48,785 bases of DNA from an uncultured Candidatus Saccharibacteria bacterium (GCA_964406145.1 CAYOQP010000003.1:29663-78447); one strand, 5' to 3'; counted from the first letter of the stretch, positions 12,392 through 37,424 are shown. Made by a program: numbers and translations. Notes: a model not told the origin generated them from the letters alone.

Positions 12392-12419
12392 TTGATTTTT
12401 TCTGGTTTTGATATACAAT
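12392..12419 (+). promoter_or_regulatory. Promoter candidate TTGATT-16 nt-TACAAT ahead of the T4SS-like block
   Basis: TTGATT lies at 12392..12397 and TACAAT at 12414..12419. They are followed by GGAGGGG (12450..12456) and the ATG at 12458. Confidence 0.3.
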
Positions 12420-12457
12420 TGTTTTAAGTAGAGTTTCTCAAATTTCTATGGAGGGGT

Positions 12458-14398
12458 ATGAAAAAATATATAACTTGGCTCCTACTCTTTGGGCTATTTT
12501 TAACTTTTTTCCCGACTGAAAAGATAATGTCGGCAGAGCTTCCAACTCCCGTAAATGTAGGTGTTGATGCGGAAAATGGAACTTGGGAGTGGCAATTCAA
12601 CGATACGAATGGTGAATGGCAGGTCGAGAATATTGTCAAATACAAAGATAGTGCTGGCAAAATAAGTACTATAAAGGCTATCTGGTCTCAAGACACCACT
12701 CCAACATATTCAATCTATCTAAGAGATGAAACTGTCGACAAAAGAGGTGAAGGTGGAAGATATTTTCTACACCTCGATAAAATTTATGTCGACGGCACGG
12801 AACAGGCTGAGAAGCCTGATGGGATTTATGTTTTTATAAATCCTGGAGCAAATCCTAAGGGTCAGTATTTTACTGATTCGTTTAATTATGTCACTTTTGC
12901 GGCAAACGGCGAAAATAAAACAATAGGCGGCGTCTACAAATTATTAGCGATGGGATCGATATCAAGATTCCAAACAACAGACCCAAATGACACTGATGAT
13001 ACTGGCAGTAAGTACTATTGCCCGACCTCAACTGATGCTTCAAAACAACAGATACAATTGGGGTACGACACAAAAATAGTTGCTGTTCCTGATACTGGCG
13101 GATCCTACAAAATCAATGCAAGGGTTGCAGACATGTGGAATAACTTCTGGGGCAATAGCGAGGCCTTGTATACTAACACTGCGGGAGCAATGTGTTTCGA
13201 TGATATTGCCGGAGGTAGTGGCGATATAATGGACGGAGATAGAAATGTCTCTGGAACTATGGCTGGACTCTATGTGCGAGGTACCGGAGGAAAGCTCGGA
13301 GGCATTGCCAAAAACGGGAGTCCAAAAAGAGTTACGGTTCCTGTTATAACGGACGCCGCAAAGGCAGCTTGTGCTAGCAAATACATAGACCCAATTAGCG
13401 CGGCGAGTCAATTTGAAACCAAATTACCAGAGTTACTTGTCGACGTAATCAATGAGGTTGATCCGACAACCGTAGCAAAAAAAGCAGAAAACATTGCAAC
13501 ACTTGCTGATTATTACAAGAAAATGTTTAACGGTGATCCCGATGGAACATTCACGGCCGGACCAGATAAAGTTGGCCTACACTCACACTATTTTGGTGAC
13601 CTCGGCGCACAAAAATACTCCAGCGCTGTTTTGACAGATAAGATGACGGCAAACATAAGGAATGAGATGACGATGGCCAAAATAAACGACTGGTCAGATG
13701 TTCCACCCAATTTTTTTGAAAAAATGTTCTCGGCTCTTGGCAAAAAAGCAGGCGAAAATCCTGGCGCAACCGTAGTAAGTCTGGTGATTTTAGGTCAGGT
13801 TGCCTCAAGATATGGCCTACAGTTATTAAAAGTTGTTGGACAGGCCGCAATTGCCAATCCTATAGGTGCTTTGGCGTTCCTGGTTTTGGCTTCTTCTATA
13901 GTAATCGCTTGGAATGGTGTTCAAGCCTTTCAAAGCTATTGGAACGATCAGTATCGTTCATTTGCCCTATATTCACTCTTCGTCTGGTATCTGAGTAGTC
14001 TTAATGCAGAGTACAAGGGCTGTATCGTCGAAAAAGGCGGCCTAGAAGCAAATCTAGCGGCCAAGACTGGGTTTTCCCAAAAAGCCCTTGATCTTCAGCT
14101 CAAAAATACCCACTTAGTTAAGCATGTCGCCGGAGAAGCAAACAACGACATTGTCAACAGTATGCCGGACCTAGACGAATGCGGCTGTCCCAAAAATAGC
14201 CTGTCAATTGCGGGCTTTAATATAGTCGGTTTATTCACCTGCGTTATTTGTTCTGTCTTTAAACTCCTATATGAAGGAGTCGAAAAAGCTACAGACTTTT
14301 TTCAAAAACAAGCGATGAAAGTAGTACGGCTTGTTCCTTCTCGGATCTCGAGTCGGAATATCGATATCGGTCCACCATATTTAATTAGAGCGGGTTAA
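12458..14398 (+). CDS. Secreted/membrane-anchored hypothetical protein: signal peptide, ~440-aa ectodomain, C-terminal multi-TM region; first gene of the T4SS-like block
   Basis: Strong SD. Signal-like MKKYITWLLLFGLFLTFFPTEKIMSA. C-terminal hydrophobic helices include IANPIGALAFLVLASSIVIAW, FALYSLFVWYLSSL and IAGFNIVGLFTCVICSVFKLL. The stop overlaps the next start (TAATG at 14396..14400). Confidence 0.65.
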   Translation: MKKYITWLLLFGLFLTFFPTEKIMSAELPTPVNVGVDAENGTWEWQFNDTNGEWQVENIVKYKDSAGKISTIKAIWSQDTTPTYSIYLRDETVDKRGEGGRYFLHLDKIYVDGTEQAEKPDGIYVFINPGANPKGQYFTDSFNYVTFAANGENKTIGGVYKLLAMGSISRFQTTDPNDTDDTGSKYYCPTSTDASKQQIQLGYDTKIVAVPDTGGSYKINARVADMWNNFWGNSEALYTNTAGAMCFDDIAGGSGDIMDGDRNVSGTMAGLYVRGTGGKLGGIAKNGSPKRVTVPVITDAAKAACASKYIDPISAASQFETKLPELLVDVINEVDPTTVAKKAENIATLADYYKKMFNGDPDGTFTAGPDKVGLHSHYFGDLGAQKYSSAVLTDKMTANIRNEMTMAKINDWSDVPPNFFEKMFSALGKKAGENPGATVVSLVILGQVASRYGLQLLKVVGQAAIANPIGALAFLVLASSIVIAWNGVQAFQSYWNDQYRSFALYSLFVWYLSSLNAEYKGCIVEKGGLEANLAAKTGFSQKALDLQLKNTHLVKHVAGEANNDIVNSMPDLDECGCPKNSLSIAGFNIVGLFTCVICSVFKLLYEGVEKATDFFQKQAMKVVRLVPSRISSRNIDIGPPYLIRAG

Positions 14399-17391
14399 TG
14401 GCAAAAAAAAGTCGTTTAAAAAATATGCGCTTTTGGGCGGTATCAGCCATTTCGCTGATGGTTTTTTGTTTTCTTTTCCTGACTTTTGCTCCATCAGCTA
14501 GTGCCGGTAGTTTCCTCGGTGCCAGACCATTAACAGAGGAACTAAAGGTCTCGAGCTCATTGCACGACCTCTGGAAGTTCTTCATGACAACGGTCAACAG
14601 TCTTATTATTGTTCTTTTAATAGTTGTGGCCTTTGCCGAAATATTAAGAATTAATATCAATACTTACGGGGTCAAAAAGATCCTGCCAACACTGGTACTA
14701 GCTGTCATCGCCGCTAACTTCAGCTGGATCATCTGTCGTCTGATCGTTGATATTTCCTATGTTGCCAGAACTATGTTCACCGATAATGGCGGCCTTTTTG
14801 CTAATGTTTTTCAGGGCGCCAGATGGACTGATAGCCAGGGCTGGACAACTGCAGTGCCAAGATTTATATCAGCAATCATACGACTTATCTACGACATATT
14901 GGTCCTTGTCGCCATTGTCCTGCTTTGGTTGCTGTTCTGGGTCAGGAACTGGGTCATCATGACTCTGGCTATTCTCTCGCCTATTGCCTTCATGGCCATG
15001 GTCTTGCCACAAACAAAATCTCTTTTTACTCGTTGGTGGACAGAGATGCTACGCTGGACATTCATGCCTGTCGTTTCTTATTTTTTCATCTGGCTTGGAG
15101 CGAGATTTCTTCAGTCGCTTTCACCTGATCCTCTTTATGCCATGCTTGTCGCTGGAGTCTGTCTATATGGCGCAATCATTACCCCATTCAAGCTTGGTGG
15201 TGTCGTCATGGCGCCGATCGGTAAGCTAGCCAATATGGGTCTCAAGAAAGGCCAATCAAAGTGGGTAGATCCAGCCATCAAGGAAATGAAGGACGCCTTT
15301 ATGGAAAAATACCTCGGGACTCAGGACGAGGAGGGCGGCTTCAGAGGAGGATGGAAAAAAGGTGGTCTGGGAGGTGCTATAAAAGGAGCGGCTGGCTATA
15401 TGGTCAGACGCGCTGAGAGAGTTAAGTTTCGAAGAAGCGAACAAGCTCGTGCTGTTGAGGGAAAATTGGATTCAGCAGTCCGTGCCGCTTTCGGCGGCAA
15501 ATATGGCCAATTCAACAAAGAGCTAGAGGGTTGGGTCAACAAGTCTGTACCAAAAAGCAAGCGAACCGCTAGCTATGTCGGAGAAGATGGTCAAATACAC
15601 GAAGAGTTATTAACCGGCGCCAAAGCAATCGCTTATCGCACTGATAGCATCAATGGTGACTTTGGCGAAAAAGATTGGATACACAAGAAAAATTTGGGCG
15701 ACTTCTTTGAGGAGACAGAATCCGGCAAACAAGCGATGGATCGTAGCGTCCAATACGCTTTCCGTGTCGGCGCCGAAGATGCTCGTATGAAGGCGCTGAG
15801 AATGGAATCGGAGTTGCTAGCATATCACTATACTCCGGACATGCCCAATCGTTATCATGACAATACCATGTATGGCTATGGCGAGGATGATGATCCAAGA
15901 CGCCATCACTTCTCTCTGATGCAGGCTAGGAAACAGGAGTGGGATGGCAGACTTTTATGGATGGATATGATGAGACAAAAAACCGAGGGAGACGCTCTTA
16001 CAGCAGACATGCAAAACGCCATACCTCTGAATAGATTTGCCAGTAATTTCCAATACTTGAGACAAATGTTGACAGACGATGATGCTCTTCCTGTTGGACA
16101 TGCCGACAAATTAACCGCCGAAGAAAGAGCAGATGCGGCCGAAGCAATGGAACTTCTCAGAGAAGCATACCGCAATATGGCCTCTCATGAGGTTATTACT
16201 GACAATGTCAGAGATGGACGCCTTGTTGGTGGTAATCTGCCAACAGTCCGGGCGATGACAGCCAGAGCAGACGGCACTTTTAGTGATGATATTGAGGACT
16301 GCCAATTGATGCAAACTCTTGCTCACGTTCAAGACGAGAACCTGTATATGTTTGAGGGCAGAGAAGCAAAACGTTGGACTGCTCGAGCCAAGGAAGAGAT
16401 CAGTTCAGAGCAAGGCAAGAGAACTTCAATCCAATCTGGTCAAAAAGGCTGGGATCATAAAAAATATTCTGATACCGCTACAGATGCAACCGCAACAGAA
16501 GAAGACAGAAGGCGCGCCGAAGAAAGACTTCGACAAAATGCCGCTATTTTGAATGGCGATCTAACAGCCATACCCGCTGGCCACCCCCTTGAGGTTGCTA
16601 TTGCTCAGTGGCGCAATCTCTCGACTGCCGCGACTCGACCTGGTGATACTGATTATCGACCAGCTCTTACTCAGTACTTTATTCCAAATGTTGCTTATGC
16701 GGCGCAACAAGCCAATGGCCAGCTAACAAGAGAAATGATGGCTCAAGCCATTAAGATCGGGGTCGAACAAGGGCTCAGTAACTCTAATTTTTCTGGGACC
16801 ATAAAATCTGCTTTTGTTGAGGAAGCTGTAAAAACAAGAAGAGCAGCGGCGGAAGCCAGATCTGCCTTGCCGGCCGGAGCAAGTGAAGATGACAAGAAGG
16901 CACACAAAAAAGAGCTTGACGACCAAGATGAAGCATACAGAAAAGAAATAGCCGCACTGGATGCCAGGGCGCTTCACGAAAGGGTATCGACCGACACAGG
17001 AGGAACATTATCGTTATTGCAGCAGTATCAGAATAAAATGGCAACTGATCTAGGAGCACATATTGATGCTCTTGGCAGTCACGCACAACTTGGTTTTACT
17101 GATGCCGGCCAAGTCACGATAAAAATCAATCAAGAAGGTGCCACGACAGAAGCAGAAAGATCGGCTCTTGTTGGCGCGATGGAGTCAGTCTGGCTTTCTC
17201 TTGCTTCACAAGACCCAAGTGATCGAAACAGAGGAGCATTTTCACGAGGACAGGCAGCAGGCGCCAGCCAAAAGAATGTTCTGGTTAACAATGAACCAGG
17301 AGTCAGAATTATTGAGGGTGCTGATGCGGTTGGGAAAAAAGGAATAGTAGCGAAAGCGAGGAAGCGTGCCAGAGCAGAAGGCGGAGACTAA
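14398..17391 (+). CDS. Polytopic VirB6/TrbL/ConG-like membrane protein with a ~700-aa hydrophilic C-terminal extension
   Basis: Signal-like MRFWAVSAISLMVFCFLFLTFAPSASA. At least 5 helices fall in the first ~290 aa: LIIVLLIVVAFAEIL, LVLAVIAANFSWIICRLIV, ILVLVAIVLLWLLFWVRNWVIMTLAILSPIAFMAMVL, WTFMPVVSYFFIWLGARFL and LYAMLVAGVCLYGAII. A charged, helical region follows. The family call rests on architecture and context only. Confidence 0.5.
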   Translation: MAKKSRLKNMRFWAVSAISLMVFCFLFLTFAPSASAGSFLGARPLTEELKVSSSLHDLWKFFMTTVNSLIIVLLIVVAFAEILRININTYGVKKILPTLVLAVIAANFSWIICRLIVDISYVARTMFTDNGGLFANVFQGARWTDSQGWTTAVPRFISAIIRLIYDILVLVAIVLLWLLFWVRNWVIMTLAILSPIAFMAMVLPQTKSLFTRWWTEMLRWTFMPVVSYFFIWLGARFLQSLSPDPLYAMLVAGVCLYGAIITPFKLGGVVMAPIGKLANMGLKKGQSKWVDPAIKEMKDAFMEKYLGTQDEEGGFRGGWKKGGLGGAIKGAAGYMVRRAERVKFRRSEQARAVEGKLDSAVRAAFGGKYGQFNKELEGWVNKSVPKSKRTASYVGEDGQIHEELLTGAKAIAYRTDSINGDFGEKDWIHKKNLGDFFEETESGKQAMDRSVQYAFRVGAEDARMKALRMESELLAYHYTPDMPNRYHDNTMYGYGEDDDPRRHHFSLMQARKQEWDGRLLWMDMMRQKTEGDALTADMQNAIPLNRFASNFQYLRQMLTDDDALPVGHADKLTAEERADAAEAMELLREAYRNMASHEVITDNVRDGRLVGGNLPTVRAMTARADGTFSDDIEDCQLMQTLAHVQDENLYMFEGREAKRWTARAKEEISSEQGKRTSIQSGQKGWDHKKYSDTATDATATEEDRRRAEERLRQNAAILNGDLTAIPAGHPLEVAIAQWRNLSTAATRPGDTDYRPALTQYFIPNVAYAAQQANGQLTREMMAQAIKIGVEQGLSNSNFSGTIKSAFVEEAVKTRRAAAEARSALPAGASEDDKKAHKKELDDQDEAYRKEIAALDARALHERVSTDTGGTLSLLQQYQNKMATDLGAHIDALGSHAQLGFTDAGQVTIKINQEGATTEAERSALVGAMESVWLSLASQDPSDRNRGAFSRGQAAGASQKNVLVNNEPGVRIIEGADAVGKKGIVAKARKRARAEGGD

Positions 17392-18283
17392 CAATTTAGA
17401 CAGGAGCCTAGATCCAAGTACTTTGGCTTATATTTTTGAGCTGAAGAAATTTTTTGAGATTAGCGATTTTATCGAAACTCTGAAAAAGAAGAGGCCCGAT
17501 AGATATATACAAGCCCTTTACCACATTATGGAAGGTGATGTCTTGGGCGAGATTTATTGGCATAAAATAAGATTAGCCAAGTTTTTTGCCAAGGCAAGCA
17601 AAGTTGCGGCCGAGCCAGAGGACTATATGAGAATCCTCTTTTTACTGGCCAAGCACGCTGACTCTAGTATCGGCGATACTAACGCCGCCTTCTCAAAAGA
17701 ATTTGGTCCCAATTTTCATGTCTATGAAAGCTATAAGATCGATGGCGGTGCGACCAAAAGTTGGCGCGATCTAGCTATCAGGGCTAGGGAGATTAAAAAT
17801 GGCATGCTTAATCACTCTTATCTCATAGTCAAACCTCTTGTTGAAGAGATTATTAGCACATATAAAAGAAATACGGACACCGATCTGGAGAAAATTGATA
17901 AAATTTACGCTCTAGCAAATGAGATCGTTGGCCAAACCGGGGTTATGATTATGGACAATCCAAATGCTCCAGAAAATGCCGAGATCAAAAAAAAGGTAAT
18001 TGAATTCTATAAATTGACCAATCGGCTCAATATGGACATTGAGAGATTGGACGATGAGTATAATTTCGACAAGATAACAGCATATGTCAACAAAATGAGG
18101 TCGGTTTATGCAATTAAATTGCATATGATTAGCAAAGATATGCCTTTCGATAATCTGGAGGAAGCAGAGAAGTTTTTAATGAAATTATTGGGACAACAGG
18201 AATTTGCTCAATATATTGATATAGAAGAACTTCAAAGAGCTGGCGTTAAATTGCCACAGTTGAAAGTAACGACATCAAAATAA
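17366..18283 (+). CDS. Hypothetical soluble protein of the T4SS-like block
   Basis: A 305-aa ORF with no TM helix and no nucleotide-binding motif. The start is uncertain: GTG at 17366 overlaps the upstream gene by 26 nt, and an in-frame TTG lies at 17423. Confidence 0.55.
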   Translation: MPEQKAETNNLDRSLDPSTLAYIFELKKFFEISDFIETLKKKRPDRYIQALYHIMEGDVLGEIYWHKIRLAKFFAKASKVAAEPEDYMRILFLLAKHADSSIGDTNAAFSKEFGPNFHVYESYKIDGGATKSWRDLAIRAREIKNGMLNHSYLIVKPLVEEIISTYKRNTDTDLEKIDKIYALANEIVGQTGVMIMDNPNAPENAEIKKKVIEFYKLTNRLNMDIERLDDEYNFDKITAYVNKMRSVYAIKLHMISKDMPFDNLEEAEKFLMKLLGQQEFAQYIDIEELQRAGVKLPQLKVTTSK

Positions 18284-18304
18284 ATAATTAGGGCTAGGAG
18301 AAAA

Positions 18305-19357: not shown

Positions 19358-19360
19358 ACA

Positions 19361-19390
19361 TTGTATCAATATTGTTTGACATGCTATAAT
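19361..19390 (+). promoter_or_regulatory. Internal promoter candidate: TTGTAT-18 nt-TATAAT with extended -10 (TGCTATAAT)
   Basis: TTGTAT lies at 19361..19366 and TGCTATAAT at 19382..19390, in the only sizeable intergenic gap (58 nt) of the first half of the block. Confidence 0.4.
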
Positions 19391-19415
19391 AAAGCCAAGA
19401 CACATTGGAGGGGTT

Positions 19416-19832
19416 TTGAAGTTTAAAGTACCGCAAAATATTGATATCCAAGATCGCATTCTAGGCCCCTTGACCATGGTTCAATTTATTTATGCCGTGG
19501 TCGGTTTTGGTGTGTCATATATTATTTTCAACGCAATTCCAAAGCCATTCTCGTATTTCTTGATTGCCCCGATAGTCATCTTTGTTATCTTATTGGACTT
19601 TGTAAAAATAAATGAGCGACCATTTCTTGATTTTCTAACCTCTGCAATTACTTTCTTTATGTCACCGAAACAACGTTTCTGGCACCAAGGCGACGATTCT
19701 GATTTTAATATAGAAATATATAAAGTCGCCAAACAAGGACCAACAATACAACATAAAAATATTACGAGTGAAGAGATTCAAAAATTTGCAAATCGCACCG
19801 ATAGTGGAAAAACACAATTAATCAAAAACTAA
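19416..19832 (+). CDS. PrgI-family / VirB3-like small membrane protein
   Basis: TTG start after GGAGGGG. The KVPQNIDIQDRILGPLTMVQFIYAVVGFGVSYIIF motif, a second helix and ERPFLDFLTSAITFFMSPKQRFW follow the PrgI family pattern. It lies two genes upstream of VirB4, with only ORF 19834..20799 between. Confidence 0.6.
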   Translation: MKFKVPQNIDIQDRILGPLTMVQFIYAVVGFGVSYIIFNAIPKPFSYFLIAPIVIFVILLDFVKINERPFLDFLTSAITFFMSPKQRFWHQGDDSDFNIEIYKVAKQGPTIQHKNITSEEIQKFANRTDSGKTQLIKN

Positions 19833-19833
19833 T

Positions 19834-20799
19834 ATGGTTGATTCAACACAACAAGCAATAGATATTGCCGGAATCAAAGACGGCATCATGGTAATGAAGG
19901 ACGGCAGTTATCGCCTCGTTTTTCAAGTTTCTGCGACAAACTTTGCCCTAAAATCAGAACAGGAACAAAATTCTATCATTTTTCAATACCAGAGTTTCTT
20001 GAATTCGCTCCACTTCCCAATACAAATTGTTATTCGTTCTCGTCAGCTAGATTTAACACAGTACATAGCAAAAATCGAAAAAATGTCTGAGACTCAAAGT
20101 AATGATTTGATCAAAGTTCAGACGCTTGATTATGTGGATTTTTTAAAAAAGCTTATCGAAATGGCCAACATCATGAAGAAAATCTTCTACGTGGTCATAA
20201 GCTACAATCCGATTACCATAAAAAAATCTGGCCTTTTTGATAAGTTTTTCGCCAAAAAGTCAGTTTTTGAACACATCAAAATATCTGAAGACGAGTTTAA
20301 AAATTATACAAACAAGCTCTCCGAAAGAGCAAATATTGTTGCCGGTGGACTAGGGCAGATGGGTCTACATTGTTTTCAGTTATCAACTGAAGATCTGATC
20401 GAGTTATATTATCAAATATATAATCCTGACGACGCCACAAAGGAAAGAGTTAAAGACATAACTATGCTCTCTTCACAAGTGGTCATGAGCGAAGAAGAGT
20501 TTGACAACAAAGAGGAAATTAAAAAACAAAGCCAAAAAGAAGCTGGCATGATCGATAATACGGCAATTGTAGAGGAACAGCGCAAAAGAGATGCCAAACA
20601 ACTTCAAGATGACGAAGCCGCACAACAAACGCAGACTACTACTGAAACTAATGTAAAAAAAGAGGAGCCTTCAGCCCAACAACCAGCCGCAGAAGCAACG
20701 ACCGGCAGTACTGATGGTGCTACGAGCACAATACCGGTAAATCAAGACGCTACGACCGCAGAAGCAGGAACAAACAATAATCAAACTAATCAACAATAA
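19834..20799 (+). CDS. Hypothetical protein resembling the non-ATPase N-terminal domain of Gram-positive VirB4 proteins, with a Q/T/A-rich tail
   Basis: IAGIKDGIMVMKDGSYRLVFQVSATNFALKSEQEQNSIIFQYQSFLNSLHFPIQIVIRSRQLDL and SERANIVAGGLGQMGLHCFQLSTEDLIELYYQIYNP parallel the layout of the N-terminal third of the next ORF. There is no Walker motif. Confidence 0.45.
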   Translation: MVDSTQQAIDIAGIKDGIMVMKDGSYRLVFQVSATNFALKSEQEQNSIIFQYQSFLNSLHFPIQIVIRSRQLDLTQYIAKIEKMSETQSNDLIKVQTLDYVDFLKKLIEMANIMKKIFYVVISYNPITIKKSGLFDKFFAKKSVFEHIKISEDEFKNYTNKLSERANIVAGGLGQMGLHCFQLSTEDLIELYYQIYNPDDATKERVKDITMLSSQVVMSEEEFDNKEEIKKQSQKEAGMIDNTAIVEEQRKRDAKQLQDDEAAQQTQTTTETNVKKEEPSAQQPAAEATTGSTDGATSTIPVNQDATTAEAGTNNNQTNQQ

Positions 20800-20802
20800 A
20801 CT

Positions 20803-22665
20803 ATGGCAGACGTAGAACAAAAAAATACACCAGCAGCATCTCCAAATCCGGTAGTTCCGCCCGCGGATGCTAGAGCCGTCGCTCAGGAGAATATTGCCAA
20901 AAGAGAAAAGACTGTAAATCCAGCTGAATTCTGGCAAAAAGCTCAAGCAAATAAGGCCATGCTAAAACAAGGCTCAACCTCTGTTAGAGATATCATAGCC
21001 CCAGCCTCTTTTGTTGTTACACCAAATTATGTTCAGTTGGGCGGATATTATGTCAAAACCCTTTTTGTTTTTACTTATCCGAGATACATCGAAACAAACT
21101 GGCTTTCACCTATCATCAATTATGATCTGACCATGGATATGAGCCTGTACATCCATCCTCTAGAGTCAAAAGATGTCATGAATGAATTAAAAACTCAGGT
21201 GGGTAAAATCGAATCGACCATGTCGATTGATCAGGAAAAGGGTAAGCCGAGAGACCCCGAGCTTGAAACAGCTTTGGGTGATGTTGAGGCCTTAAGAGAT
21301 GTTCTTCAAAGAGGAGAAGTGAGATTATTTCAATTTGGTCTTTATTTTACGCTTTATGCCAGAACACCAGAAGAGCTTAAGACCGTTACTGATCAGCTCG
21401 AGTCAACTTTGGGCGGCCTATTGATCTATACCAAAGAGACCCTTTTTCAGATGGAGCAGGGCTTCAACGCAACCATTCCTTTAATGACCGACAACATCAG
21501 TGTCTTGCGCAATCTCGATACTAGTTCTCTTTCCTCGACCTTCCCTTTTACCTCCAGCGAATTAACTCAGGATGAGGGAATTTTGTATGGTATTAATAGA
21601 CACAATAATTCACTTATTATTTTTGATCGCTTTTCTCTGGAAAATGCCAACTCTATCGTCTTGGCCAAGTCTGGCTCCGGTAAATCTTACTTTGTTAAGC
21701 TCGAGGCCTTGCGATATTTGATGATGGGGACAGATGTCATCGTTATAGACCCAGAAAACGAATACAAGACCCTCTGCGAGGCTGTCAGCGGTAGTTATTT
21801 GGAGATATCTTTAAACTCTGATAAACGTATTAACCCTTTTGATTTGCCTGTCTCAACAGAAGAAACTGGCGAAGATGTACTTAGATCTAATATTGCCTCA
21901 ATACATGGATTGATTAATTTAATGGTCGGTGGACTTAACCCAGAAGAAGATGCTGTTGTTGATAAGGCTCTTTACGAAACTTACGCTCTCAAAGATATCA
22001 CGACCGATCCAGAGAGTCAGAAAAATGAACCACCATTATTGCAGGACTTCTACAATATTTTATCCAATATGCAAGGAACAGAGTCTTTACGAGCGAGATT
22101 GTCAAAATATGTCGAAGGCTCATTCTCAAATCTCTACAATCAGAGAACTAATTTCGAGCTCAAACCTGGCTTTGTTGTCTTCTCTGTTAGAGATCTAGAG
22201 GAGCAGCTTCGTCCAATCGCCATCTATACCGTGCTTGACTATATTTGGACCAAAGTACGCATGTCCATGAAAAGACGTTTAATGATTGTTGACGAAGCTT
22301 GGTGGATGATGCAGTACGAAGACTCAGCTAAATTCCTTTATGGTCTAGCCAAGAGAGCTAGAAAATATTATTTGGGACTAACAATCATTAGCCAAGACGT
22401 CGAAGACTTCCTTGGAAGTCGTTATGGTAAGGCTGTCGTTGCCAACTCTTCGATGCAAATTCTAATGAAGCAATCGACAGCTTCAGTTGATGTCGTCGCA
22501 GAAATCTTTAACCTTACAGAGGGTGAAAAATATATGCTTCTTGAGTCTGATGTTGGCGAAGGCCTTTTCTTTGCGGGACTTAATCACGTAGCTTTTAAAG
22601 CCGTGGCCTCTTACACAGAGGACCAGATCATCACAACAGATCCCCGACAACTTACAGGAAAATAA
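20803..22665 (+). CDS. virB4: VirB4/TrbE/ConE-type T4SS ATPase
   Basis: The N-domain DIIAPASFVVTPNYVQLGGYYVKTLFVFTYPRYIETNWLSPIINYDLTMDMSLYIHP is the typical Gram-positive VirB4 pattern. Walker A is LAKSGSGKSYFVK (nt ~21663..21701), Walker B is LMIVDEAWWMM, and ARKYYLGLTIISQ is also present. Confidence 0.85.
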   Translation: MADVEQKNTPAASPNPVVPPADARAVAQENIAKREKTVNPAEFWQKAQANKAMLKQGSTSVRDIIAPASFVVTPNYVQLGGYYVKTLFVFTYPRYIETNWLSPIINYDLTMDMSLYIHPLESKDVMNELKTQVGKIESTMSIDQEKGKPRDPELETALGDVEALRDVLQRGEVRLFQFGLYFTLYARTPEELKTVTDQLESTLGGLLIYTKETLFQMEQGFNATIPLMTDNISVLRNLDTSSLSSTFPFTSSELTQDEGILYGINRHNNSLIIFDRFSLENANSIVLAKSGSGKSYFVKLEALRYLMMGTDVIVIDPENEYKTLCEAVSGSYLEISLNSDKRINPFDLPVSTEETGEDVLRSNIASIHGLINLMVGGLNPEEDAVVDKALYETYALKDITTDPESQKNEPPLLQDFYNILSNMQGTESLRARLSKYVEGSFSNLYNQRTNFELKPGFVVFSVRDLEEQLRPIAIYTVLDYIWTKVRMSMKRRLMIVDEAWWMMQYEDSAKFLYGLAKRARKYYLGLTIISQDVEDFLGSRYGKAVVANSSMQILMKQSTASVDVVAEIFNLTEGEKYMLLESDVGEGLFFAGLNHVAFKAVASYTEDQIITTDPRQLTGK

Positions 22666-24768
22666 ATGGAAGCAGGGGGCAAAAAAATCAAGACGAAAAA
22701 AGGTTTTGCCATTGTTCCGTTGGTGATGCAGTTTTTGTTGACGGAGGGCTTGCCCATTATTATTGCTATTGCCATTATTGGTTTGGCTTTTTTTATTTTT
22801 GCGAGCATGAAAGGAGACGCTAATACGGCCACCACGAATTCCGACACTGTTACTTGTGGCAAATGGGCGGACGTTGGTGAACAAGAACAAACACTCATGA
22901 AACAGGCAGCGACTGAAGCGGGTATTCATCCGGCGTTGTTGGCGGCAATATACTGGCAAGAAAATGGCAAGACATGGAAGCCAATGACAGCTGATTTTCC
23001 CTGCGGAACAAATGGCTGTGGACCATTTCAATTAAACTCTGATAATCGCGAAGCATACGGGCTAAGCGAGGCCGAGGCCAAAGACTTTACTAAGTCAGTC
23101 GGTCCAGCCGCAAAGATACTAAAATCAGCAGTGACTAATCTTGGCGTCGACGGATTATCCGAAAACGAAGACTCCACTCGAGCAGTCGCCTTGGCTTATA
23201 ATCGCGGCCCGTGCGTCGCTAAAAAATGGGTAGAGGATGGCCGCCCACTTAGTGCTGAAAAAATAAAAACCTATCAAGATGCTTGCAATTATGCCACGAG
23301 CGTTTATCCAAGATCTGGCTTTACTCCGATGGAGCTGGCTCAAATTGGTCTTGATTACCTAATGTCAGCCGGCACAATGTTCAAAGATTTGGCCAAAGGT
23401 TGTGATAGATTAAATATTATCGCCGGCGGGAGCTACTCCGGTGAAAGCTTTATTAGCACTTGCCAAGGAGTCTCAACAAACATTACAACTGGGGGTAAAG
23501 TAATTGTTCTAGATCCAGGACATGATACCCCAAATAACAATGCTGGAGCAACGGGTGAAGGAGCGGCAAATTTAGAGGTAGCGCTACAAGCTAGAACAAA
23601 ATTAATCGCAAGTGGATATACTGTCTATCTGACCAGAGGAGACCCCAATGGTGGTGGAATTGATTTAACAAAAATTGCCGGAGCACCAAGTGATGCTAGT
23701 AATGATGAGGATAACAAAAGAAGGGCGGTGTTTGGTAATTCTAAAAACGCAGCATTAGTATTTCGAATTCATGGTGATGCCGGCGGATCACCTGGGTACT
23801 ATTTTATCTATCCTCGCTCCATGACCGCAGATAGAACCGGTCACGTCGGACCACCAGCAACAATTGCAGCTCAAAGCAAGGACATTACCGAAAAAATATC
23901 TCGGTCTTTGGCGACTCAAGGCCTAACAAAACAAAAAGATCCTGGTGATGATGTCAATTACACAAGCTACAAAGCCAATCTTGTCGGTTCATCATGGAGC
24001 ACGGTTCCGGTAACACTAATAGAAATGTTTGGCATGACCTCTGCGAATGCTAAAAGTGCTGAATATAAAACAAAAATGGCAAATGGAATTGCAAAAGCAA
24101 TATCTGATAATGTTCCGATCACACCAACAGGATCAACTACCGTTGTAACTCAGACGAAGGCTTGTTCTATCGCAAATTATGCTCTTCAGACAGTGGAAGA
24201 TGTTACAGAAAACGATGGCTGTAAAGATGGTAATGGCTTTCCAAATGGTTGCGCTGCTTCAAGCAAAAGCGCAGGGGCAAGCAATTATGCAAGCAATCCC
24301 AAGAAATCAGCCTTTTCTCAAACACCGAAGACACGAAGCTGGTATGCTGGAAGCGGATCTTGGCCATGGTATGCCGACTGTGGGTCTTTCGTTGGGTATA
24401 TTGTCAGATCTATAGCCGATCCAGCTTTTCCACTAAACGGCTCTTCCGCCCAGTTCTCTTATGTCAAAGCTCATCCAGAAAAATATGAAATGTTGTCGAA
24501 TAATGGCAACAATCTTAAACCTGGAGATATCCTATTTAGAGGAAGTTGTAACGCTGACCAAAACAAAAACAATGATGATTCTGACAGTATTAGATACGAA
24601 TGTAGTTATGGCACAAGTAAGGGTTTTGGACATATAGAAATTTATGTGGGTGATAATTCCAAATATCCAGGATATGCTGTTGCCTCAGCCTCTTATGGTA
24701 GCTATGGGCCAAAGGTTAGAAAATCCTTTGGCGGAACAATGGGAGTAATCGCTAGAATTAAAAATTAA
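22666..24768 (+). CDS. Membrane-anchored three-domain peptidoglycan hydrolase: SLT-like lytic transglycosylase + Amidase_3-like + NlpC/P60(CHAP)-like (VirB1/CwlT/PrgK analogue)
   Basis: TM helix at aa 25-46. SLT motifs are YWQENG, GPFQL and ALAYNRG (nt ~22888..23235). Amidase_3-like motifs are VLDPGHD, NLEVALQ..YLTRGD, LVFRIHGDA and LIEMFG (nt ~23497..24105). The NlpC/P60-like domain has DCGSFVGY (Cys) and GHIEIYVGD (His) (nt ~24343..24765). Confidence 0.7.
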   Translation: MEAGGKKIKTKKGFAIVPLVMQFLLTEGLPIIIAIAIIGLAFFIFASMKGDANTATTNSDTVTCGKWADVGEQEQTLMKQAATEAGIHPALLAAIYWQENGKTWKPMTADFPCGTNGCGPFQLNSDNREAYGLSEAEAKDFTKSVGPAAKILKSAVTNLGVDGLSENEDSTRAVALAYNRGPCVAKKWVEDGRPLSAEKIKTYQDACNYATSVYPRSGFTPMELAQIGLDYLMSAGTMFKDLAKGCDRLNIIAGGSYSGESFISTCQGVSTNITTGGKVIVLDPGHDTPNNNAGATGEGAANLEVALQARTKLIASGYTVYLTRGDPNGGGIDLTKIAGAPSDASNDEDNKRRAVFGNSKNAALVFRIHGDAGGSPGYYFIYPRSMTADRTGHVGPPATIAAQSKDITEKISRSLATQGLTKQKDPGDDVNYTSYKANLVGSSWSTVPVTLIEMFGMTSANAKSAEYKTKMANGIAKAISDNVPITPTGSTTVVTQTKACSIANYALQTVEDVTENDGCKDGNGFPNGCAASSKSAGASNYASNPKKSAFSQTPKTRSWYAGSGSWPWYADCGSFVGYIVRSIADPAFPLNGSSAQFSYVKAHPEKYEMLSNNGNNLKPGDILFRGSCNADQNKNNDDSDSIRYECSYGTSKGFGHIEIYVGDNSKYPGYAVASASYGSYGPKVRKSFGGTMGVIARIKN

Positions 24769-24792
24769 TAAATTTGCGGTATAATTAATCGA

Positions 24793-26055: not shown

Positions 26056-26115
26056 TTATCTTTTTGAAGTTTTAAATAACAATTTTATTCAACTAGAGCT
26101 AATGACGGAGGGGTT

Positions 26116-28431
26116 TTGGCTCATAAAAAATATTCAATAATTCTTGAAGCAGGAAATCTGGCCAAAGCAGGCCAAAAAGAAGCGGCCGCAAGATTGCTAA
26201 GAGATAATCAGATCAGTTCTCCGGATGCTAATGCCGAGCTTATTCGCAACCAACTTTTTGACGAGGCAATGGCTCTTACGAATGCCGTTGAAGAGGCTAG
26301 CCTTGCCGAAATACACAATGAAACAGTCGGTGGCGATCAAGCTCCCGCAGACACAACTGTCAACAACAATAGCGACACTCCATCAACGGTCTCGGAAGAA
26401 AAAGTAACGAGTGATAGCGGATCAGGGGAAGGAGATGGGGAGATAGATCTCGCTCCAGTGACTACTGATGACATCGAAGAAGCAGAAGCGGGAAAAACAG
26501 ATACGAAAGACAAGCCAGTAATAGAAGAGAATGGAGAAACAATCAACTCTGGTGGATCCGACGCTGATCTAGAACCAGACGACAATAGCGCTGTTAGAGA
26601 GGAGGTAATATCCGAGACTCCAACAGACCCTTCTCAAACGAGACGACCAAATTTTAATGGTTTAGATGGAGTATTCAGACCATACTCTGGACCAAGCCGG
26701 GAAACAGACGAAGCAATCGGGGTCGAGCCCGACCAAGAAGAAAATGAGGACGACGACAAAAATCCCAAAATAAAGGTCTCTGGCCCAACTAGTGTATATC
26801 CTGATCAAAAAGCCTCGTATACAGCCTCTACTTCTCAATTTGAAGAGGAAGAGACTTATTTCTGGGCAATTGAGGGCAGAAGAATTGGTGGAGTTGGCTT
26901 TGAATATTCTGGCAAAGAAAGTGACGGTTCGGCAAAAGGATTAATAATCAAAACTGCCGAAAAATGCGGCGCCGGAACTATCACCGTAATGGCCAAGGGC
27001 GTAAAAAGTGGCGTTATATCGGGATTGAATGTTTTTATTAAAAAAAATAAAAACGACCTAAAGCCAAAAGTTGAAATTGATGGACCAAATTCGGTCAACG
27101 CTGGCTCGAGCATTACTCTAAGCGCTAAAACAACAAATTTTGACGAGGAAGAAACTTATATCTGGAGCCACGAAGGAAGTGTTGCTGGAGTCACACTTAA
27201 TCCATCTGGGGGTAATTATGTAATTACAGCCGCACCAGAATGTGGCAAGGGAGCCATAACTGTTTTAGCCAGAGGAGAAAAAAGCGGCGCCAGCTCCGGT
27301 GGATTCAATGTCATCGTCATCAATAAGAAGAAAGAGGACGAAAAAGAAGAAGAGAGCGAGGAAGAGAAGAAAAAAAGAGAAGACCAGGAGGCCAAGGAGA
27401 AGGCTGAGAAAGAGGCCAAGGAGAAGGCTGAGAAAGAGGCCAAGGAGAAGGCTGAGAAAGAGGCGGCTGAGAAAACTGCTGCAAAAAATGGCGGCAAGGG
27501 AGGCATAGGCAAAGCACTTGCGGCCCTCGCTGAAAATCCTTGGTTTTGGGTTGCAGTGATTGTCATCATCATAGCTTTAGCAATCTTCGCTTGGTTTATT
27601 AGCGTGGCGCAATCAGGCGCAAATGGCAAAACTCCGACTATCCAGGTGAATGCGGCCACAAACAAGGACTCGTTACAAAAATTAAATTTGCTTATGGGCG
27701 ACAAGGACTCACAACAGCAAATTTCACAACAAACTTTTCAAGAAGCTCAAAAAAATTTACTTGCCCTAAAAGAACAGGTAGCCGATCCAGCAATAAAAAC
27801 CAAGATCGATGAAGCTTTGGCCAAAATTGAACTTTATTTAACTAACTTTGATACAGAAACAGGCAAAGCCGCCATTGAACTTATAAGACAAGCTCTAGCC
27901 ATGTTAGACGCCATGGTGCCAGCAATCCAAGGTCGCTACCCGATCAATCCAGGTGATGTCATTGCCTACAATAACGAACTCCATCTTGCGACACCCATGA
28001 GACCAGAACCACTCAGCTACGACAAAGGACACGGAACTTACATATATCCTGGCGAGAACAGGTGCGATGCAGTTGATATATTTACTATTCCGGAAGCCGC
28101 AGTTTACTCTGCCATCACCGGAGACATTGTTGATGTTTCTGATGATGGAACAGGTCATAAAAAGGTGGTTATAAAACAGGGAGACTACGAGCTTCTTTAT
28201 GCTAATTTTGACCCTACTGTTGTAGTCGGAGACAAAATTACGAATTTAGAAACACCTATTGGCAAAACTGTTGATATAAATGGTGCCCACCAATTACATG
28301 TAGAGCTTTCTTACTGTGGAATCTGTCTGGTTACAACGCCACTAGACAGGATAATTAAAGAAGAAAGAAATCAATCTTCTTGGGGAGAATTACTTTGGAC
28401 ACATTATAAGGAGACATTAAGATTGCCGTGA
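26116..28431 (+). CDS. Bitopic protein: acidic disordered N-region, two duplicated Ig-like domains, EAKEKAEK repeat, TM helix, C-terminal degenerate LytM/M23-like domain
   Basis: TTG start after GGAGGGG. The duplicated ~90-aa segments are at nt 26767..27039 and 27064..27321. The TM helix is WFWVAVIVIIIALAIFAWFI (nt ~27538..27603). The M23-like segment is DAVDIFTIPEAAVYSAITGDIVDV..VVVGDKITNLETPIGKT..GAHQLHVEL (nt ~27928..28320). Confidence 0.6.
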   Translation: MAHKKYSIILEAGNLAKAGQKEAAARLLRDNQISSPDANAELIRNQLFDEAMALTNAVEEASLAEIHNETVGGDQAPADTTVNNNSDTPSTVSEEKVTSDSGSGEGDGEIDLAPVTTDDIEEAEAGKTDTKDKPVIEENGETINSGGSDADLEPDDNSAVREEVISETPTDPSQTRRPNFNGLDGVFRPYSGPSRETDEAIGVEPDQEENEDDDKNPKIKVSGPTSVYPDQKASYTASTSQFEEEETYFWAIEGRRIGGVGFEYSGKESDGSAKGLIIKTAEKCGAGTITVMAKGVKSGVISGLNVFIKKNKNDLKPKVEIDGPNSVNAGSSITLSAKTTNFDEEETYIWSHEGSVAGVTLNPSGGNYVITAAPECGKGAITVLARGEKSGASSGGFNVIVINKKKEDEKEEESEEEKKKREDQEAKEKAEKEAKEKAEKEAKEKAEKEAAEKTAAKNGGKGGIGKALAALAENPWFWVAVIVIIIALAIFAWFISVAQSGANGKTPTIQVNAATNKDSLQKLNLLMGDKDSQQQISQQTFQEAQKNLLALKEQVADPAIKTKIDEALAKIELYLTNFDTETGKAAIELIRQALAMLDAMVPAIQGRYPINPGDVIAYNNELHLATPMRPEPLSYDKGHGTYIYPGENRCDAVDIFTIPEAAVYSAITGDIVDVSDDGTGHKKVVIKQGDYELLYANFDPTVVVGDKITNLETPIGKTVDINGAHQLHVELSYCGICLVTTPLDRIIKEERNQSSWGELLWTHYKETLRLP
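27388..27474 (+). repeat. Perfect 24-nt tandem repeat x3 plus a partial fourth copy, in-frame (EAKEKAEK)n
   Basis: GAGGCCAAGGAGAAGGCTGAGAAA occurs at 27388..27411, 27412..27435 and 27436..27459. A diverged partial copy follows. Confidence 0.9.
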
Positions 28432-37400: not shown

Positions 37401-37424
37401 GCTTGGACACATATTGGCTTCTAA
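28428..37424 (+). CDS. Giant (2998 aa) surface protein: N-terminal signal/anchor, ~2700-aa mostly helical ectodomain, three C-terminal TM helices and a Cys-containing tail
   Basis: An uninterrupted 8997-nt ORF. Its GTG start overlaps the upstream TGA (GTGA at 28428..28431). The N-terminus is FIIYLVGISLSLNPLVVLVPEKVSAATT. The C-terminal helices are AAVGAVIQFAIGLLV, LAPVISAGIYTLALPAMNAAIYAAAP and WGWAAIIGIFIIMNLFGVY (nt ~36696..36985). No family is recognisable by eye apart from a short LAS-peptidase-like motif. Confidence 0.8.
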   Translation: MIQICKNFIIYLVGISLSLNPLVVLVPEKVSAATTTPAANVATPLIGIRDQESFGYAPKAAGAQCDAIRKTRPEAYNSLVSMLQNFSGVGSSALAFNDILTAPGEARILLPLKDRKAVKSLLCLSQVIPNYAEDTKALYDALPASEKSNIDGAVSLEANNPFPIYRTRDEYFLFLRYGYEGQDPNEKLANFDYVTGLVKTAEKNFSEKELKRIWSEQADRIAKGLDTTIEANTLSCVTGLDRNELRARIGTTTGGQYIAERINDAVNSLIIDIRVVNTLIYLVTPKDKGGAGHWRVSVARILQGSEKSRESDAAIEENARMETPTLRSASEGSATQIECDENMTAAECGAQQNQGQAVVEDKDGTQYEAFFENMDNELDDERNVSAHFTGQAVDIKQIDDIRCTLVKKRRIGGSSKQKQPIRPIKLVWQTTDGWSQARGENDFDTMSMMRDLAKQSIIDLLSSMNEDITDYDGDLSRASFDDLIGILGQSLLAQIVDSPSHNLKGYSVTNTIEQLGAMYFADYLELPREIFKNEDLKDLEKIKYIIGRAAIEKRLGLPFGSLDSLNLIETTRNGLEKPIYNLEGLVLNIGQRKIEYEMGFEAHDLDPYFKINTVQGEYLLDYKSIGRIVIENELNLPKGSWPKTAISFATLKDYISEVRANVLKVDPGYIDSILHIDPGTTQSFILGRITSEQLAEKVGTVRYNNTTAGLKYFAMNNVAYQLPGPTVEDPDVPDTWKEALKGNPEYIKVIGIYTLARLLGENSLDIDLSYVDGGTLKKYVPDDATLGKVVVSTKFNEEKEIVYDRKEYGFFVFREWIRRNLDERLKAADGCSEGRTTGGINVSATYQGQTVYNGPVDLNNPTREDIQNTIDSVCKLKQTIIVNEINYTDKDGNDHQIKNVVADAYISDAKAIEIGLEKMDLYSIMGFREADARPVFKRIGAKLLYYGIANKVLNEEERLKINLMDVNPTINVDENSNDVTAFYIPRILKVQELTRKLKTDWEAVRTNDAETQDITDRISKIFARLESIYSESDVNLLKIQRVAQAIKEIMVDINAIKEELEILRERYNTRTGTEVVNKIAQINALIYNTNELIRIVAEIFSGKQINSSDLLNIKQISLGADSSGVSDADGRRTRSGLSRWEMIILLFSFLSGEISVQEFIIRLGANTAEAKLGLPANSLIYLVQNFDKMGIHGVDAFYQAIGQARIEEEFAMPMYYFQGYDYNKKLPKFDKLNDKDEFADLIQWAVNEKGESVIKPEYDLHVAELREAWITDEVTMTKFIFGQKWVNWEKFDSWVELAKTRWLEKNKVKARDMAVFEKTIDDVVTNIGNKGYGDGFRSPEDDLLFRMGLPTGKYSALKDASPLAWQVANSRSQTIDAAFDVPVNSTKMLFTGSEEITSKSLSNKEKNLLEASDLKISKNEIEKYIQMLNGDLLPGENNEYNNGLDPDYVSNNPYADPAITGPICPIDFTSEDGFMVNNTTLPANSFCYYDKTGRHCFQSWEEAQLYANEHPDAKITDILEDLAVKITTAYNQSLIAADGSSTGTRISYIDVFSGLTDFVNDKKKVSAFNDTALNTIARNDGGEVSGQNNASRLELSKIAFENISKNSTVPVDIFMNIFTRESIEAPLSAYKTKVGTTEAQKILTTKIFDSLNLEIDPEMFDGSDLYDILTGDYSSLYRLGTSYMDRALDLKQGTINLIWTARTPEARKCALDKAGGVLLGEVFGLDYLPLDRLTTDMGDFMTSLGQEKIEEALSLPRGTFRVDDQTTKNNLDNLIKNVGIINFVSVFKLPINLIDEGDRATFEDSVYNILGQDGFNRVSNTSPQYQLQKVKEFLSSTLVLTNNANVGRRSLEALLAELMQGPGGILALIASTDPAASLIKTKPENINSETSLAYSLYNLQVQNFYAQLNYIDGLLGLSHYSTYLMLGGKTAPVAYINKVGDSLGIKIAGLKLAEMLGLDAMESEAALAIATNIRQIFVCEGNGRRLVNINGRQVCLTGTGMSPESDGWYHNWGLIYDNLDKIFHFKLDEKAGLPIGTIQKLIDDPKATFPVLLEIGAQKLDAKMFPDDPERSSKTASFSGLYRALFPETLAPIQAECHAEAFPGGVDMELDNKMALANEQLKTIEREYETLGLPAGDNNSTDWLNSLSATDRAKYDAWKARKDAKLAEIRTIQNEYNTRAKAEQDCLRTRQETSAALGSLGEVPRDQWDVYGARAWEWAQAAIAEIIHDKLLNIYVSLPGCDSTVHSPMGDYQNPEACKVNVGIDMPTSDIRKMMGGDLRYLMAVTLAMGANLAYILIDNISSTNCNPDERDSEGCRAPVPAEMRISYADIMLALFGLPQNELNALAAWREVTNQSGNVYEEDPDNHSWNGESCQPGEVFDGIMCVASAGTNTDSAGGVRQETANNYGYSPENVEAEKARIEASIAENHQAAIDACNELGYEDPEAYDNCVNNIDGYLNESNLQNLDMLNHPEKYNFDPNNNAAAKEINDSAKEIARTRLQYKLMDTALWKLDENIFPGFSRAIMKGNTGEKWAALARYVKNGLINGHLFGIRFDSIDPEIIDAGLAVAAYLTARTQEQRDIAIENFTNQKFNTLVQFISNNSEKWLGIRLDLDITEGLLTSIFTGNWGANSFSLDGIMGDTGARETFAGQERWTLGGAVVNWGLGRIFSWADKALGLEAGQSLQIFNLAKNAYKAYKAYQAASATLEAANKLAAATKQLVELTKGTIFEGTAIALNDTAQAAQKAAEAQKAAKLAGYGAAVGAVIQFAIGLLVDKLLGKQIGQWEEALGLVPGTLAPVISAGIYTLALPAMNAAIYAAAPSLGSSFLPALGPWGWAAIIGIFIIMNLFGVYRVEYWCTADGYFPKLGQPNYLENDISPYGVWGGRVNGSLNDIIKNMSIKVAQYKAQRLIGDMLEMQYNSDFNDYNGMPTVPTQIMTGREEDVEYWKNVVETNVCQQRLGDRAHLIFDGKNAVCDAGMRRMGLWFNPQTTAWTHIGF

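Follow-up and report, generated by a model that had tools for sequence, protein, structure and literature searches.

A 48,785-nt (48.8-kb) stretch of DNA from an uncultured Candidatus Saccharibacteria bacterium (GCA_964406145.1 CAYOQP010000003.1:29663-78447), called the window here, carries a block of eleven plus-strand open reading frames (ORFs) at 12458-37424 that includes the genes of a type IV secretion system (T4SS). The block very probably represents a chromosomal, vertically inherited T4SS of the Patescibacteria clade that came from the MPF-FATA conjugation machinery, lost its link to DNA processing and serves host-dependent growth. New here is a conserved gene pair downstream of virB4, encoding a LAS-peptidase-like protein and a giant protein, that was previously undescribed.

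The system itself has already been described for the phylum in 2023-2025, and the window holds a further member. In Southlakia epibionticum ML1, Wang et al. (2023) found an 'apparent T4SS', SEML1_0006-0019, next to dnaA-dnaN-recF; it resembles Gram-positive conjugative systems, includes a pilin array, is essential in transposon sequencing (Tn-seq) and has no recognisable coupling protein or relaxase (PMC10633639). The order there is dnaA, dnaN, recF, 0004, 0005 (PEGA), 0006 (two lysozyme-like domains and a Cys peptidase), 0007 (1113 aa, with a Hedgehog/DD-peptidase domain), 0008 (VirB4), 0009, 0010 (PrgI), 0011, 0012 (NTF2-like), 0013 (VirB6) and 0014-0019 (pilins), and nearly all of these genes are essential (PMC10633639).

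According to Quinonero-Coronel et al. (2025), 2417 of 3035 Patescibacteria genomes encode a VirB4, and these VirB4s are monophyletic and nested in MPF-FATA (PMC12102498). In that survey the commonest neighbour of virB4 is TrsD, accompanied by PrgI, VirB6 and arrays of VirB2-like pilins; the locus is often near dnaA, dnaN and rnpA, a type IV coupling protein (T4CP) is seldom adjacent and relaxases occur in 103 of the 3035 genomes (PMC12102498). A 2025 review lists these systems as a monoderm T4SS that is new, essential and possibly pilus-forming (PMC12857230).

A first-pass annotation of the same DNA had proposed a domesticated, non-conjugative T4SS of the Gram-positive type in an episymbiont. 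The core profiles, the absence of a T4CP and a relaxase from the window and the housekeeping flanks all agree with that idea. It was right, and arrived at independently, but not new, because the literature reports the same system for the phylum.

The secretion core and its split VirB4

The eleven ORFs of the block are numbered O1-O11 in order and were compared with 80 related loci (labels such as L002, L004 and L035):

12458..14398, plus strand: O1, 646 aa, with a signal peptide, an extracytoplasmic part of ~430 aa and C-terminal transmembrane (TM) helices, by hydropathy
14398..17391, plus strand: O2, 'extended' VirB6, 997 aa, by family-level profile evidence
17366..18283, plus strand: O3, soluble cytoplasmic protein, 305 aa, no TM helix
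18305..19357, plus strand: O4, soluble and very acidic protein (pI 4.3), 350 aa, with a weak TPR-like C-terminal region
19416..19832, plus strand: O5, PrgI/VirB3, the membrane adaptor of VirB4, 138 aa, two TM helices, by Pfam PF12666
19834..20799, plus strand: O6, TrsD-like protein, N-terminal domain of VirB4 as a separate gene, 321 aa, by NCBIfam, PF26593 and fusions
20803..22665, plus strand: O7, VirB4 ATPase body, 620 aa, by P-loop_TraG, AAA_10 and DUF87
22666..24768, plus strand: O8, membrane-anchored three-domain peptidoglycan hydrolase (SLT, Amidase_3, NlpC/P60-like), VirB1 analogue, 700 aa
24793..26055, plus strand: O9, membrane-anchored PEGA domain followed by a TolB-like beta-propeller, 420 aa, by Pfam and NCBIfam
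26116..28431, plus strand: O10, bitopic protein with Ig-like repeats, a TM helix and a LytM/M23-like domain, 771 aa
28428..37424, plus strand: O11, giant protein of an uncharacterised family, 2998 aa, with a signal peptide and C-terminal TM helices at aa ~2756-2845

All eleven lie on the plus strand at 12458-37424 as the first-pass annotation had placed them. The junctions it listed, each read directly here, are also borne out: TAATG at 14396-14400, an overlap of 26 nt at 17366-17391, gaps of 1 nt at 19832/19834 and 3 nt at 20799/20803, genes that abut without a gap (0 nt) at 22665/22666, and GTGA at 28428-28431. Strong GGAGGGG Shine-Dalgarno sequences stand before three of the start codons, TTG at 19416 and at 26116 and ATG at 12458. 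Promoter-like sites in the window are not in excess (39 against 32.5 +/- 5.8 in shuffled controls) and terminator-like sites are modestly so (24 against 14.8 +/- 4.1, ~2 standard deviations). The scan was therefore left out of the operon definition, its sites being not, or barely, above the controls.

The VirB4 and VirB3 calls are secure by profile. O5 matches PF12666 with an E-value of 8.5e-11 and 42.7 bits against a gathering score of 27. O7 matches P-loop_TraG (9e-30) together with AAA_10 and DUF87, and carries the sole Walker A motif of the eleven proteins, AKSGSGKS at residue 288 (pattern [AG]x4GK[ST]), as had been claimed. In a PDB search its top match is 4ag5, the C-terminal domain of a Thermoanaerobacter VirB4 (1.7e-45), followed by TrwK (1.8e-5). 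Against the NCBIfam model conju_CD1110 it scores 373.8 bits with a cutoff of 325, while covering model positions 173-735 only.

The missing N-terminal part is supplied by the preceding gene. O6 was first annotated as an acidic soluble protein of no family, a description that gives way to a TrsD-like VirB4 N-terminal domain. It matches the N-terminal regions of VirB4 models, namely NF045975 at positions 114-282 (E 2.6e-8), CD1110 at positions 2-124 (E 2.8e-6) and TrsD NF041427 (E 8e-4), and has a precomputed Pfam match to the TraC-like PF26593; alone against the PDB, it gives no VirB4 match. O6 and O7 are fused in frame into one ORF of 873-895 aa in three of 72 loci (L035, L037 and L040, all Saccharimonadales-like), and their counterparts are separate genes in the other 69. 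The two align colinearly on the fused protein, O6 aa 4-222 on 16-236 and O7 aa 1-617 on 254-882.

Hence VirB4 is a split gene here, as the CD1110 coverage starts at 173, O6 supplies the N-terminus and relatives have the two fused. The 'TrsD' protein is then, as gene fission or fusion directly indicates, the N-terminal domain of VirB4. The gene order PrgI-TrsD-VirB4 is kept in 66 of 67 loci.

VirB4 is also informative on the ancestry. It is 70-92% identical to more than 100 cluster representatives, the named ones of which are labelled Patescibacteria or Berkelbacteria, and has 579 relatives in GTDB species genomes, the nearest being Berkelbacteria-like and other Patescibacteria metagenome-assembled genomes. 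Judging by these relatives, the lineage is Berkelbacteria-like and not Saccharimonadia. As proxies, the CD1110 score and the sequence identity suggest that this VirB4 belongs to the Patescibacteria clade within MPF-FATA.

O2 has an N-terminal polytopic domain (aa ~10-290, five TM helices) and a variable hydrophilic C-terminal part of ~700 aa. Upstream of PrgI, 33 loci conserve the N-terminal domain. A family profile of 34 homologues (A1) has as its sole PDB match TrwI, the VirB6 of R388 (7o3v_F, E 6e-7), and 23 of the 34 members match the Pfam TrbL/VirB6 family PF04610, the best with 7e-10. The initial VirB6 call thus stands at the family level, by TrwI and PF04610, and does not for the window protein alone, which has no direct match.

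The multidomain wall hydrolase was also called correctly. O8 has one N-terminal TM helix and Pfam matches to SLT (8.7e-7) and Amidase_3 (2.5e-16). Its C-terminal part shows NlpC/P60-like Cys/His motifs when read by eye (DCGSF...GDILF...GHIEIYVG), with weak support from Pfam NLPC_P60 (E 0.026).

A VirB4-driven machine without a relaxase might instead take up DNA. It would be a T4SS run in reverse, as in Helicobacter ComB or archaeal Ced, that imports host DNA or nucleotides. ComB-type systems likewise have neither relaxase nor T4CP, and Patescibacteria lack nucleotide synthesis. The VirB4 here weakly matches the model of the DNA-import ATPase CedB (E 1.3e-12, 47 bits against a cutoff of 700), and in the class ABY1 the T4SS genes co-localise with comF, recG and radA (PMC12102498). 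However, the CedB likeness is that of a generic VirB4 ATPase fold, and the window holds no competence genes. Moreover, Southlakia achieves competence through ComEC and type IV pili, and its comEC deletion stops transformation but is viable, while its T4SS is essential (PMC10633639; PMC12857230). Because Southlakia becomes competent by that separate and dispensable route, DNA import is disfavoured, and we consider it improbable.

Chromosomal setting and the pilins across oriC

The non-conjugative T4SS that we favour sits among housekeeping genes, and its pilin genes lie on the far side of the replication origin. The features outside the block are as follows:

9275..10297, minus strand: Xer-type tyrosine recombinase (XerC 254 bits, XerD 252 bits, XerA 232.8 against a cutoff of 220)
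11734..12387, plus strand: membrane-anchored TPR protein, 217 aa, by Pfam TPR_2/TPR_14, one N-terminal TM helix
37455-37727: DciA, downstream of the block
39918..41705, no strand: DnaA-box cluster (likely oriC) around dnaA and the dnaN-dnaA spacer, by TTWTNCACA matches
41882-42016: rpmH, downstream of the block
43875..45521, plus strand: orphan PilB/GspE-type ATPase (T2SSE; VirB11 superfamily), between tRNA-Ser and the pilins
45522..47027, minus strand: 501-aa protein with ~9 TM helices, between pilB and the pilin genes
47133..47447, minus strand: VirB2-like T4SS pilin, 104 aa, two TM helices (PF18895, E 1.3e-16)
47470..47790, minus strand: VirB2-like T4SS pilin, 106 aa (PF18895, E 7.8e-13; TrbC/VirB2 PF04956, 3e-3)
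47787..48629, minus strand: 280-aa protein with a ~200-aa N-terminal extension and a C-terminal VirB2-like pilin domain (PF18895)

Pfam identifies recF, dnaN, dnaA, rnpA and yidC downstream of the block. Eight of the ten TTWTNCACA matches of the window fall within 39918-41705, four of them within at most 230 bp in the dnaN-dnaA spacer, and the cluster also holds two copies of a 29-nt element (39907 and 40126). Such clustering at 39.9-41.7 kb puts oriC ~2.5 kb beyond the end of O11.

The first-pass annotation overlooked both this adjacency to oriC and the VirB2-like pilin genes at 47133-48629. The three pilins lie ~10 kb past the end of the block across oriC, ~14-16 coding sequences (CDS) downstream of virB4, and so within the ~20 CDS of virB4 in which such genes mark the Patescibacteria-clade T4SS. 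In the 280-aa protein the PF18895 match covers residues 211-269 (E 4.1e-8). For the 104-aa pilin, the nearest NCBIfam model is the pilin-like Mbov_0395 of a Mycoplasma integrative and conjugative element (ICE), at 37.4 bits with a cutoff of 40, which suggests that monoderm conjugation systems are not entirely devoid of pilin-like proteins.

The stretch that separates the pilins from the block holds DciA, recF, dnaN, dnaA, rpmH, rnpA, yidC, tRNA-Ser, the PilB-type ATPase and the 9-TM protein. The ATPase scores 474 bits with PilB but 42 bits with VirB11, and pilC, pilM and pilT do not adjoin it. It was not counted as a T4SS part, because its PilB score is far above that of VirB11. The original remark that VirB11 is absent thus holds for the T4SS, while a VirB11-superfamily ATPase of the PilB type is present nearby. 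The 9-TM protein has no Pfam or NCBIfam family match.

Synteny, checked as the first annotation had advised, recurs on both sides. The genes uppP and TPR flank the T4SS genes upstream in L004, L005 and L007, and recF-dnaN(-dnaA) follows them in seven other loci from differently labelled Patescibacteria groups. The TPR gene lies just upstream of the block, its start overlapping the uppP stop, and its homologues occupy the same slot between uppP and the T4SS genes in those three loci. From this position alone, the TPR gene is a possible accessory of the T4SS.

These flanks bear on whether the block is an ordinary ICE or its decaying remnant, with the T4CP, relaxase and integrase beyond the window or recently lost. 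Such an element is favoured by the homology of the core to monoderm conjugation genes, by the tyrosine recombinase 2 kb upstream and by the tRNA-Ser, the sole Rfam match, 6 kb downstream. However, the recombinase is of the Xer type and is set off from the block by the PAP2, uppP and TPR genes, the latter two syntenic. The same gene order stands beside recF-dnaN(-dnaA) in the seven related loci, and relaxases are known from just 103 of 3035 Patescibacteria genomes (PMC12102498).

The profile searches agree. Among the substantial ORFs of the 48.8 kb they returned no T4CP (VirD4/TcpA), relaxase or replication/partition family, as claimed before, and an adjacent T4CP, a relaxase with oriT and an integrase with att sites, the marks of an ordinary ICE, are all missing from this span. 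The earlier statement that no integrase is present is correct for a mobile-element integrase and needs the housekeeping Xer-type recombinase added. Direct repeats bracketing the block were not found, in line with the absence of att-like boundaries noted at first, and GC content makes no sharp break at the borders (0.38-0.46 in the block against 0.34-0.45 outside).

Hence we conclude that the locus is fixed in the chromosome and not an ICE, given its syntenic flanks, the lack of repeats, the Xer-type recombinase and the recF-dnaN adjacency. Decay is incompatible with eleven intact ORFs and a VirB4 that is 70-92% identical across many species. A conjugative element, active or decaying, is therefore very hard to credit.

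A few further observations concern these surroundings. An exact 18-nt repeat links the 5' end of virB4 (20808-20825) and rpmH (41978-41995); it was judged a chance match because the reading frames differ and the sequence is A-rich. A 23S_rRNA_IVP four-helix-bundle gene (8938-9324, minus strand) overlaps the stop-codon end of the Xer gene by 50 nt. Farther upstream, 3813-4469 (plus strand) encodes a 218-aa protein that has a Phd/YefM antitoxin domain at its N-terminus and, C-terminal to it, a long extension with a perfect direct repeat of 21 nt (at 4288 and 4363); no toxin gene is evident beside it. A partial 370-aa ORF at 1-1110 (minus strand) runs off the left end; it lies upstream of a GtrA-like gene and of the two genes of a Wzt/ABC-2 polysaccharide exporter, with which it may form a surface-glycan locus.

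The envelope proteins and the LAS-like/giant pair

Downstream of virB4 and the wall hydrolase, the favoured host-dependence machine is accompanied by three further envelope proteins. O9 was rightly described as a PEGA/propeller protein, with PEGA above the gathering score (1.2e-7) and a TolB propeller (4e-13). Its homologues lie downstream of virB4 in 26 loci.

From its N-terminus on, O10 has an acidic part that bears two Ig-like repeats, then an (EKEAK)n linker, a TM helix (479-497), a coiled coil and finally a LytM/M23-like domain. A 24-nt tandem repeat at 27328-27453 encodes the charged linker, (EKEAKEKA)n, just before the single TM helix. Of the earlier 'Ig/LytM' label, the two Ig-like repeats and the LytM-like C-terminus are retained, while the Peptidase_M23 match (PF01551, E 5.5e-5) stays below the gathering score, at 23.7 bits against 28.7, and the canonical motifs HxxxD and HxH are absent, with CDAVDI and HQLHVE in their place. 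Proteins in the same slot have canonical M23 motifs in L005 and L010 and an M15-like H-x6-D...H-x-H in L004 and L040, while O10 and its counterpart in L002 are degenerate LAS-type versions that lack the first His. The LytM domain of O10 thus looks degenerate, because its equivalents in L005 and L010 keep the canonical motifs.

O10 and O11 are coupled by the 4-nt overlap GTGA. In each of the seven relatives studied closely (L002, L004, L005, L007, L010, L035 and L040), the giant is directly preceded by a bitopic LAS-type protein of 380-530 aa, whose gene abuts the giant gene or sits within a few bases of it. The giants of this conserved pair range over 1,400-3,300 aa. Among the 49 loci with 7 kb or more of sequence downstream of virB4, 15 have an ORF with the giant core there, on the strand of virB4, and these 15 comprise the window's own lineage plus some Saccharimonadales-like genomes.

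The O11 family is small. With the first 1200 residues as query, an exhaustive HMMER search of 1.84 billion proteins gave only 166 representative clusters (median length 2438 aa), and two further homologue searches (with the single sequence and with profile A2) gave one partial protein only. The shared core is at residues ~375-570, or ~270-570 with a conserved block upstream. Its motifs are GGAGH upstream, S-x-H-x-x-G-x-A-x-D-I in 88-92% of 143 homologues and an invariant W-Q. A loose internal element, IGxxxIExxLxLPxGSL, occurs in ~6 copies, and no internal repeats are detectable by BLAST.

Neither O11 nor eight shorter family members have any Pfam domain. The core gives sub-threshold Pfam matches only, to four families of the LAS clan, VanY, M15_4, M15_2 and Extensin-like_C (E at least 0.067, with 17 and 43 homologues). 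Against the PDB, profile A2 has no match at E up to 10, and A4 and A5 have chance matches at E 0.18-1.4. A first AlphaFold2 model of the core was unusable, with a predicted local distance difference test (pLDDT) score of 58; a second from 43 sequences reached 71, with 80-91 in the conserved blocks, and Foldseek found no PDB match for it (best E 0.57, TM-score ~0.1). The motif resembles the H-x6-D zinc site, and a LAS/M15 fold was considered and rejected: the position of the usual third His (E-x-x-H) is the invariant W-Q. The fold was left unassigned, as a motif resemblance only, because the PDB profile, Pfam and Foldseek searches gave no significant match.

Two proteins were tried as a second VirB6, the C-terminal TM module of O11 and O1. 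In hhalign against the VirB6 profile, each had a probability below 1%, and both were rejected.

The remaining genes of the block are less conserved. O1 has no Pfam or NCBIfam match and no sequence homologue in the 80 related loci, and its sequence is lineage-specific. Its slot upstream of VirB6 holds a signal-peptide protein of 348-606 aa in L004, L005, L007, L010 and L035. O3 has no significant Pfam or NCBIfam match and has homologues directly after VirB6 only in the closest relatives, L002 and L004; its GTG start at 17366 is the first possible one, and the true start may be farther downstream. O4 matches Pfam TPR_19 below the cutoff (E 4e-4) and, with no homologue among the related loci, is organism-specific.

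The load of wall-active domains in the block (SLT, Amidase_3, NlpC/P60-like and LytM-like) is unusual. Together with the conserved coupled pair of LAS-like and giant genes downstream of virB4, it speaks for a dedicated secretion of effectors, in which the giant protein and/or the wall hydrolases would be delivered onto or into the host and breach its wall. Protein export was suggested as an alternative role by Wang et al. (PMC10633639), and effector T4SSs with no T4CP exist in Bordetella Ptl and Brucella VirB (PMC12102498). However, O8-O11 could reach the surface without the T4SS, since all of them have Sec-type signal peptides or TM anchors. Moreover, the LytM domain here has no canonical zinc ligands, and no effector or secretion signal is known. 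As a dedicated function we regard effector delivery as rather unlikely, and it overlaps the attachment-and-transfer role proposed below rather than opposing it.

For the pair itself we offer a tentative reading. The LAS-like and giant proteins would be an undescribed T4SS module and, with the PEGA-propeller protein, may conceivably make the wall-spanning host-contact part or be a substrate, the pair replacing the adhesins and the outer-membrane core of other T4SSs. The PEGA protein and the giant protein go unmentioned in the 2025 phylum-wide survey (PMC12102498).

Proposed role and comparison with known systems

We propose a machine for host-dependent growth, reasoning from homology with T4SSs that have been studied and with the Southlakia cluster, which is essential. 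The split VirB4 would form a hexamer that docks on PrgI/VirB3 and VirB6 in the membrane. Its ATP use would extract VirB2-like pilins from the membrane and polymerise them into a pilus or conduit, and/or export proteins. The hydrolase O8 would locally open the cell's own wall for the conduit. The PEGA-propeller, LytM-like and giant proteins, exported by Sec or anchored, would form or decorate the wall-spanning, host-contact part. The whole would support epibiotic growth by attachment and/or protein transfer, not by conjugation.

Several points weigh against this proposal. Its function would be carried over from one cultivated strain of Saccharimonadia, which is not this lineage. We know of no demonstration of pilus formation by any Patescibacteria T4SS. 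O2 itself has no significant match to any VirB6 model in Pfam or NCBIfam, and a VirB8-like (NTF2) component was not found in the sequence-profile searches with these databases. About 60% of the coding length (O1, O3, O4, the N-terminal part of O10 and O11) has no assigned function. The absence of T4CP and relaxase applies to the 48.8-kb window and leaves their genome-wide absence unproven; VirD4 is present in most Patescibacteria genomes, usually far from virB4 (PMC12102498).

Patescibacteria, which live on hosts, account for a large share of the diversity of bacteria. The T4SS is among the few machines shown to be essential for the epibiotic lifestyle, and the window offers a clean, complete example from a Berkelbacteria-like lineage. 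It presents VirB4 in split form, for which the fused versions of relatives indicate that both halves make one protein, and illustrates that the pilin genes can be placed across oriC from the remaining T4SS genes. The pair of LAS-peptidase-like and giant proteins, which repeatedly accompanies virB4, offers a concrete candidate for the host-contact part.

Bordetella Ptl, Brucella VirB and Helicobacter ComB resemble the system here in being VirB4-driven and non-conjugative with no T4CP or relaxase. They differ in that all are diderm systems of the MPF-T type, built on a VirB7/9/10 outer-membrane core and, ComB excepted, equipped with VirB11; none is essential for the growth of its bearer.

The MPF-FATA systems, such as pCF10 Prg/Pcf, ICEBs1, pCW3 Tcp, the C. 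difficile CTn with CD1110 and the Mycoplasma ICE with Mbov_0395/0397, are closer. Shared with them are a CD1110-family VirB4, PrgI, a VirB6-type polytopic protein and a bi- or trifunctional hydrolase like CwlT, PrgK and TcpG, as well as the separate TrsD protein resembling the VirB4 N-terminus, as in pGO1, and pilins whose nearest model is Mbov_0395. Unlike them, the window has no T4CP (PcfC, ConQ, TcpA), relaxase/oriT, integrase/att or LPXTG adhesin, while its system has VirB2-like pilins, sits at oriC and is conserved across the phylum.

Closest is the Patescibacteria-clade T4SS of Southlakia (SEML1_0004-0019), with differences in gene content and layout. Southlakia has six pilins, whereas here three lie across oriC ~10 kb from the block; it has two VirB6-like proteins against one here, and its NTF2/VirB8-like protein has no counterpart detected here. 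The PEGA protein of the window bears an added beta-propeller, and the 1113-aa protein with a C-terminal DD-peptidase domain in Southlakia contrasts with the 2998-aa giant that follows a degenerate LytM protein. In both, the system is chromosomal and next to dnaA-dnaN-recF, has no adjacent T4CP or relaxase, and comprises VirB6, PrgI/VirB3, a TrsD-like protein, VirB4, a multidomain hydrolase, PEGA, PF18895 pilins and a large protein tied to a LAS/DD-peptidase domain.

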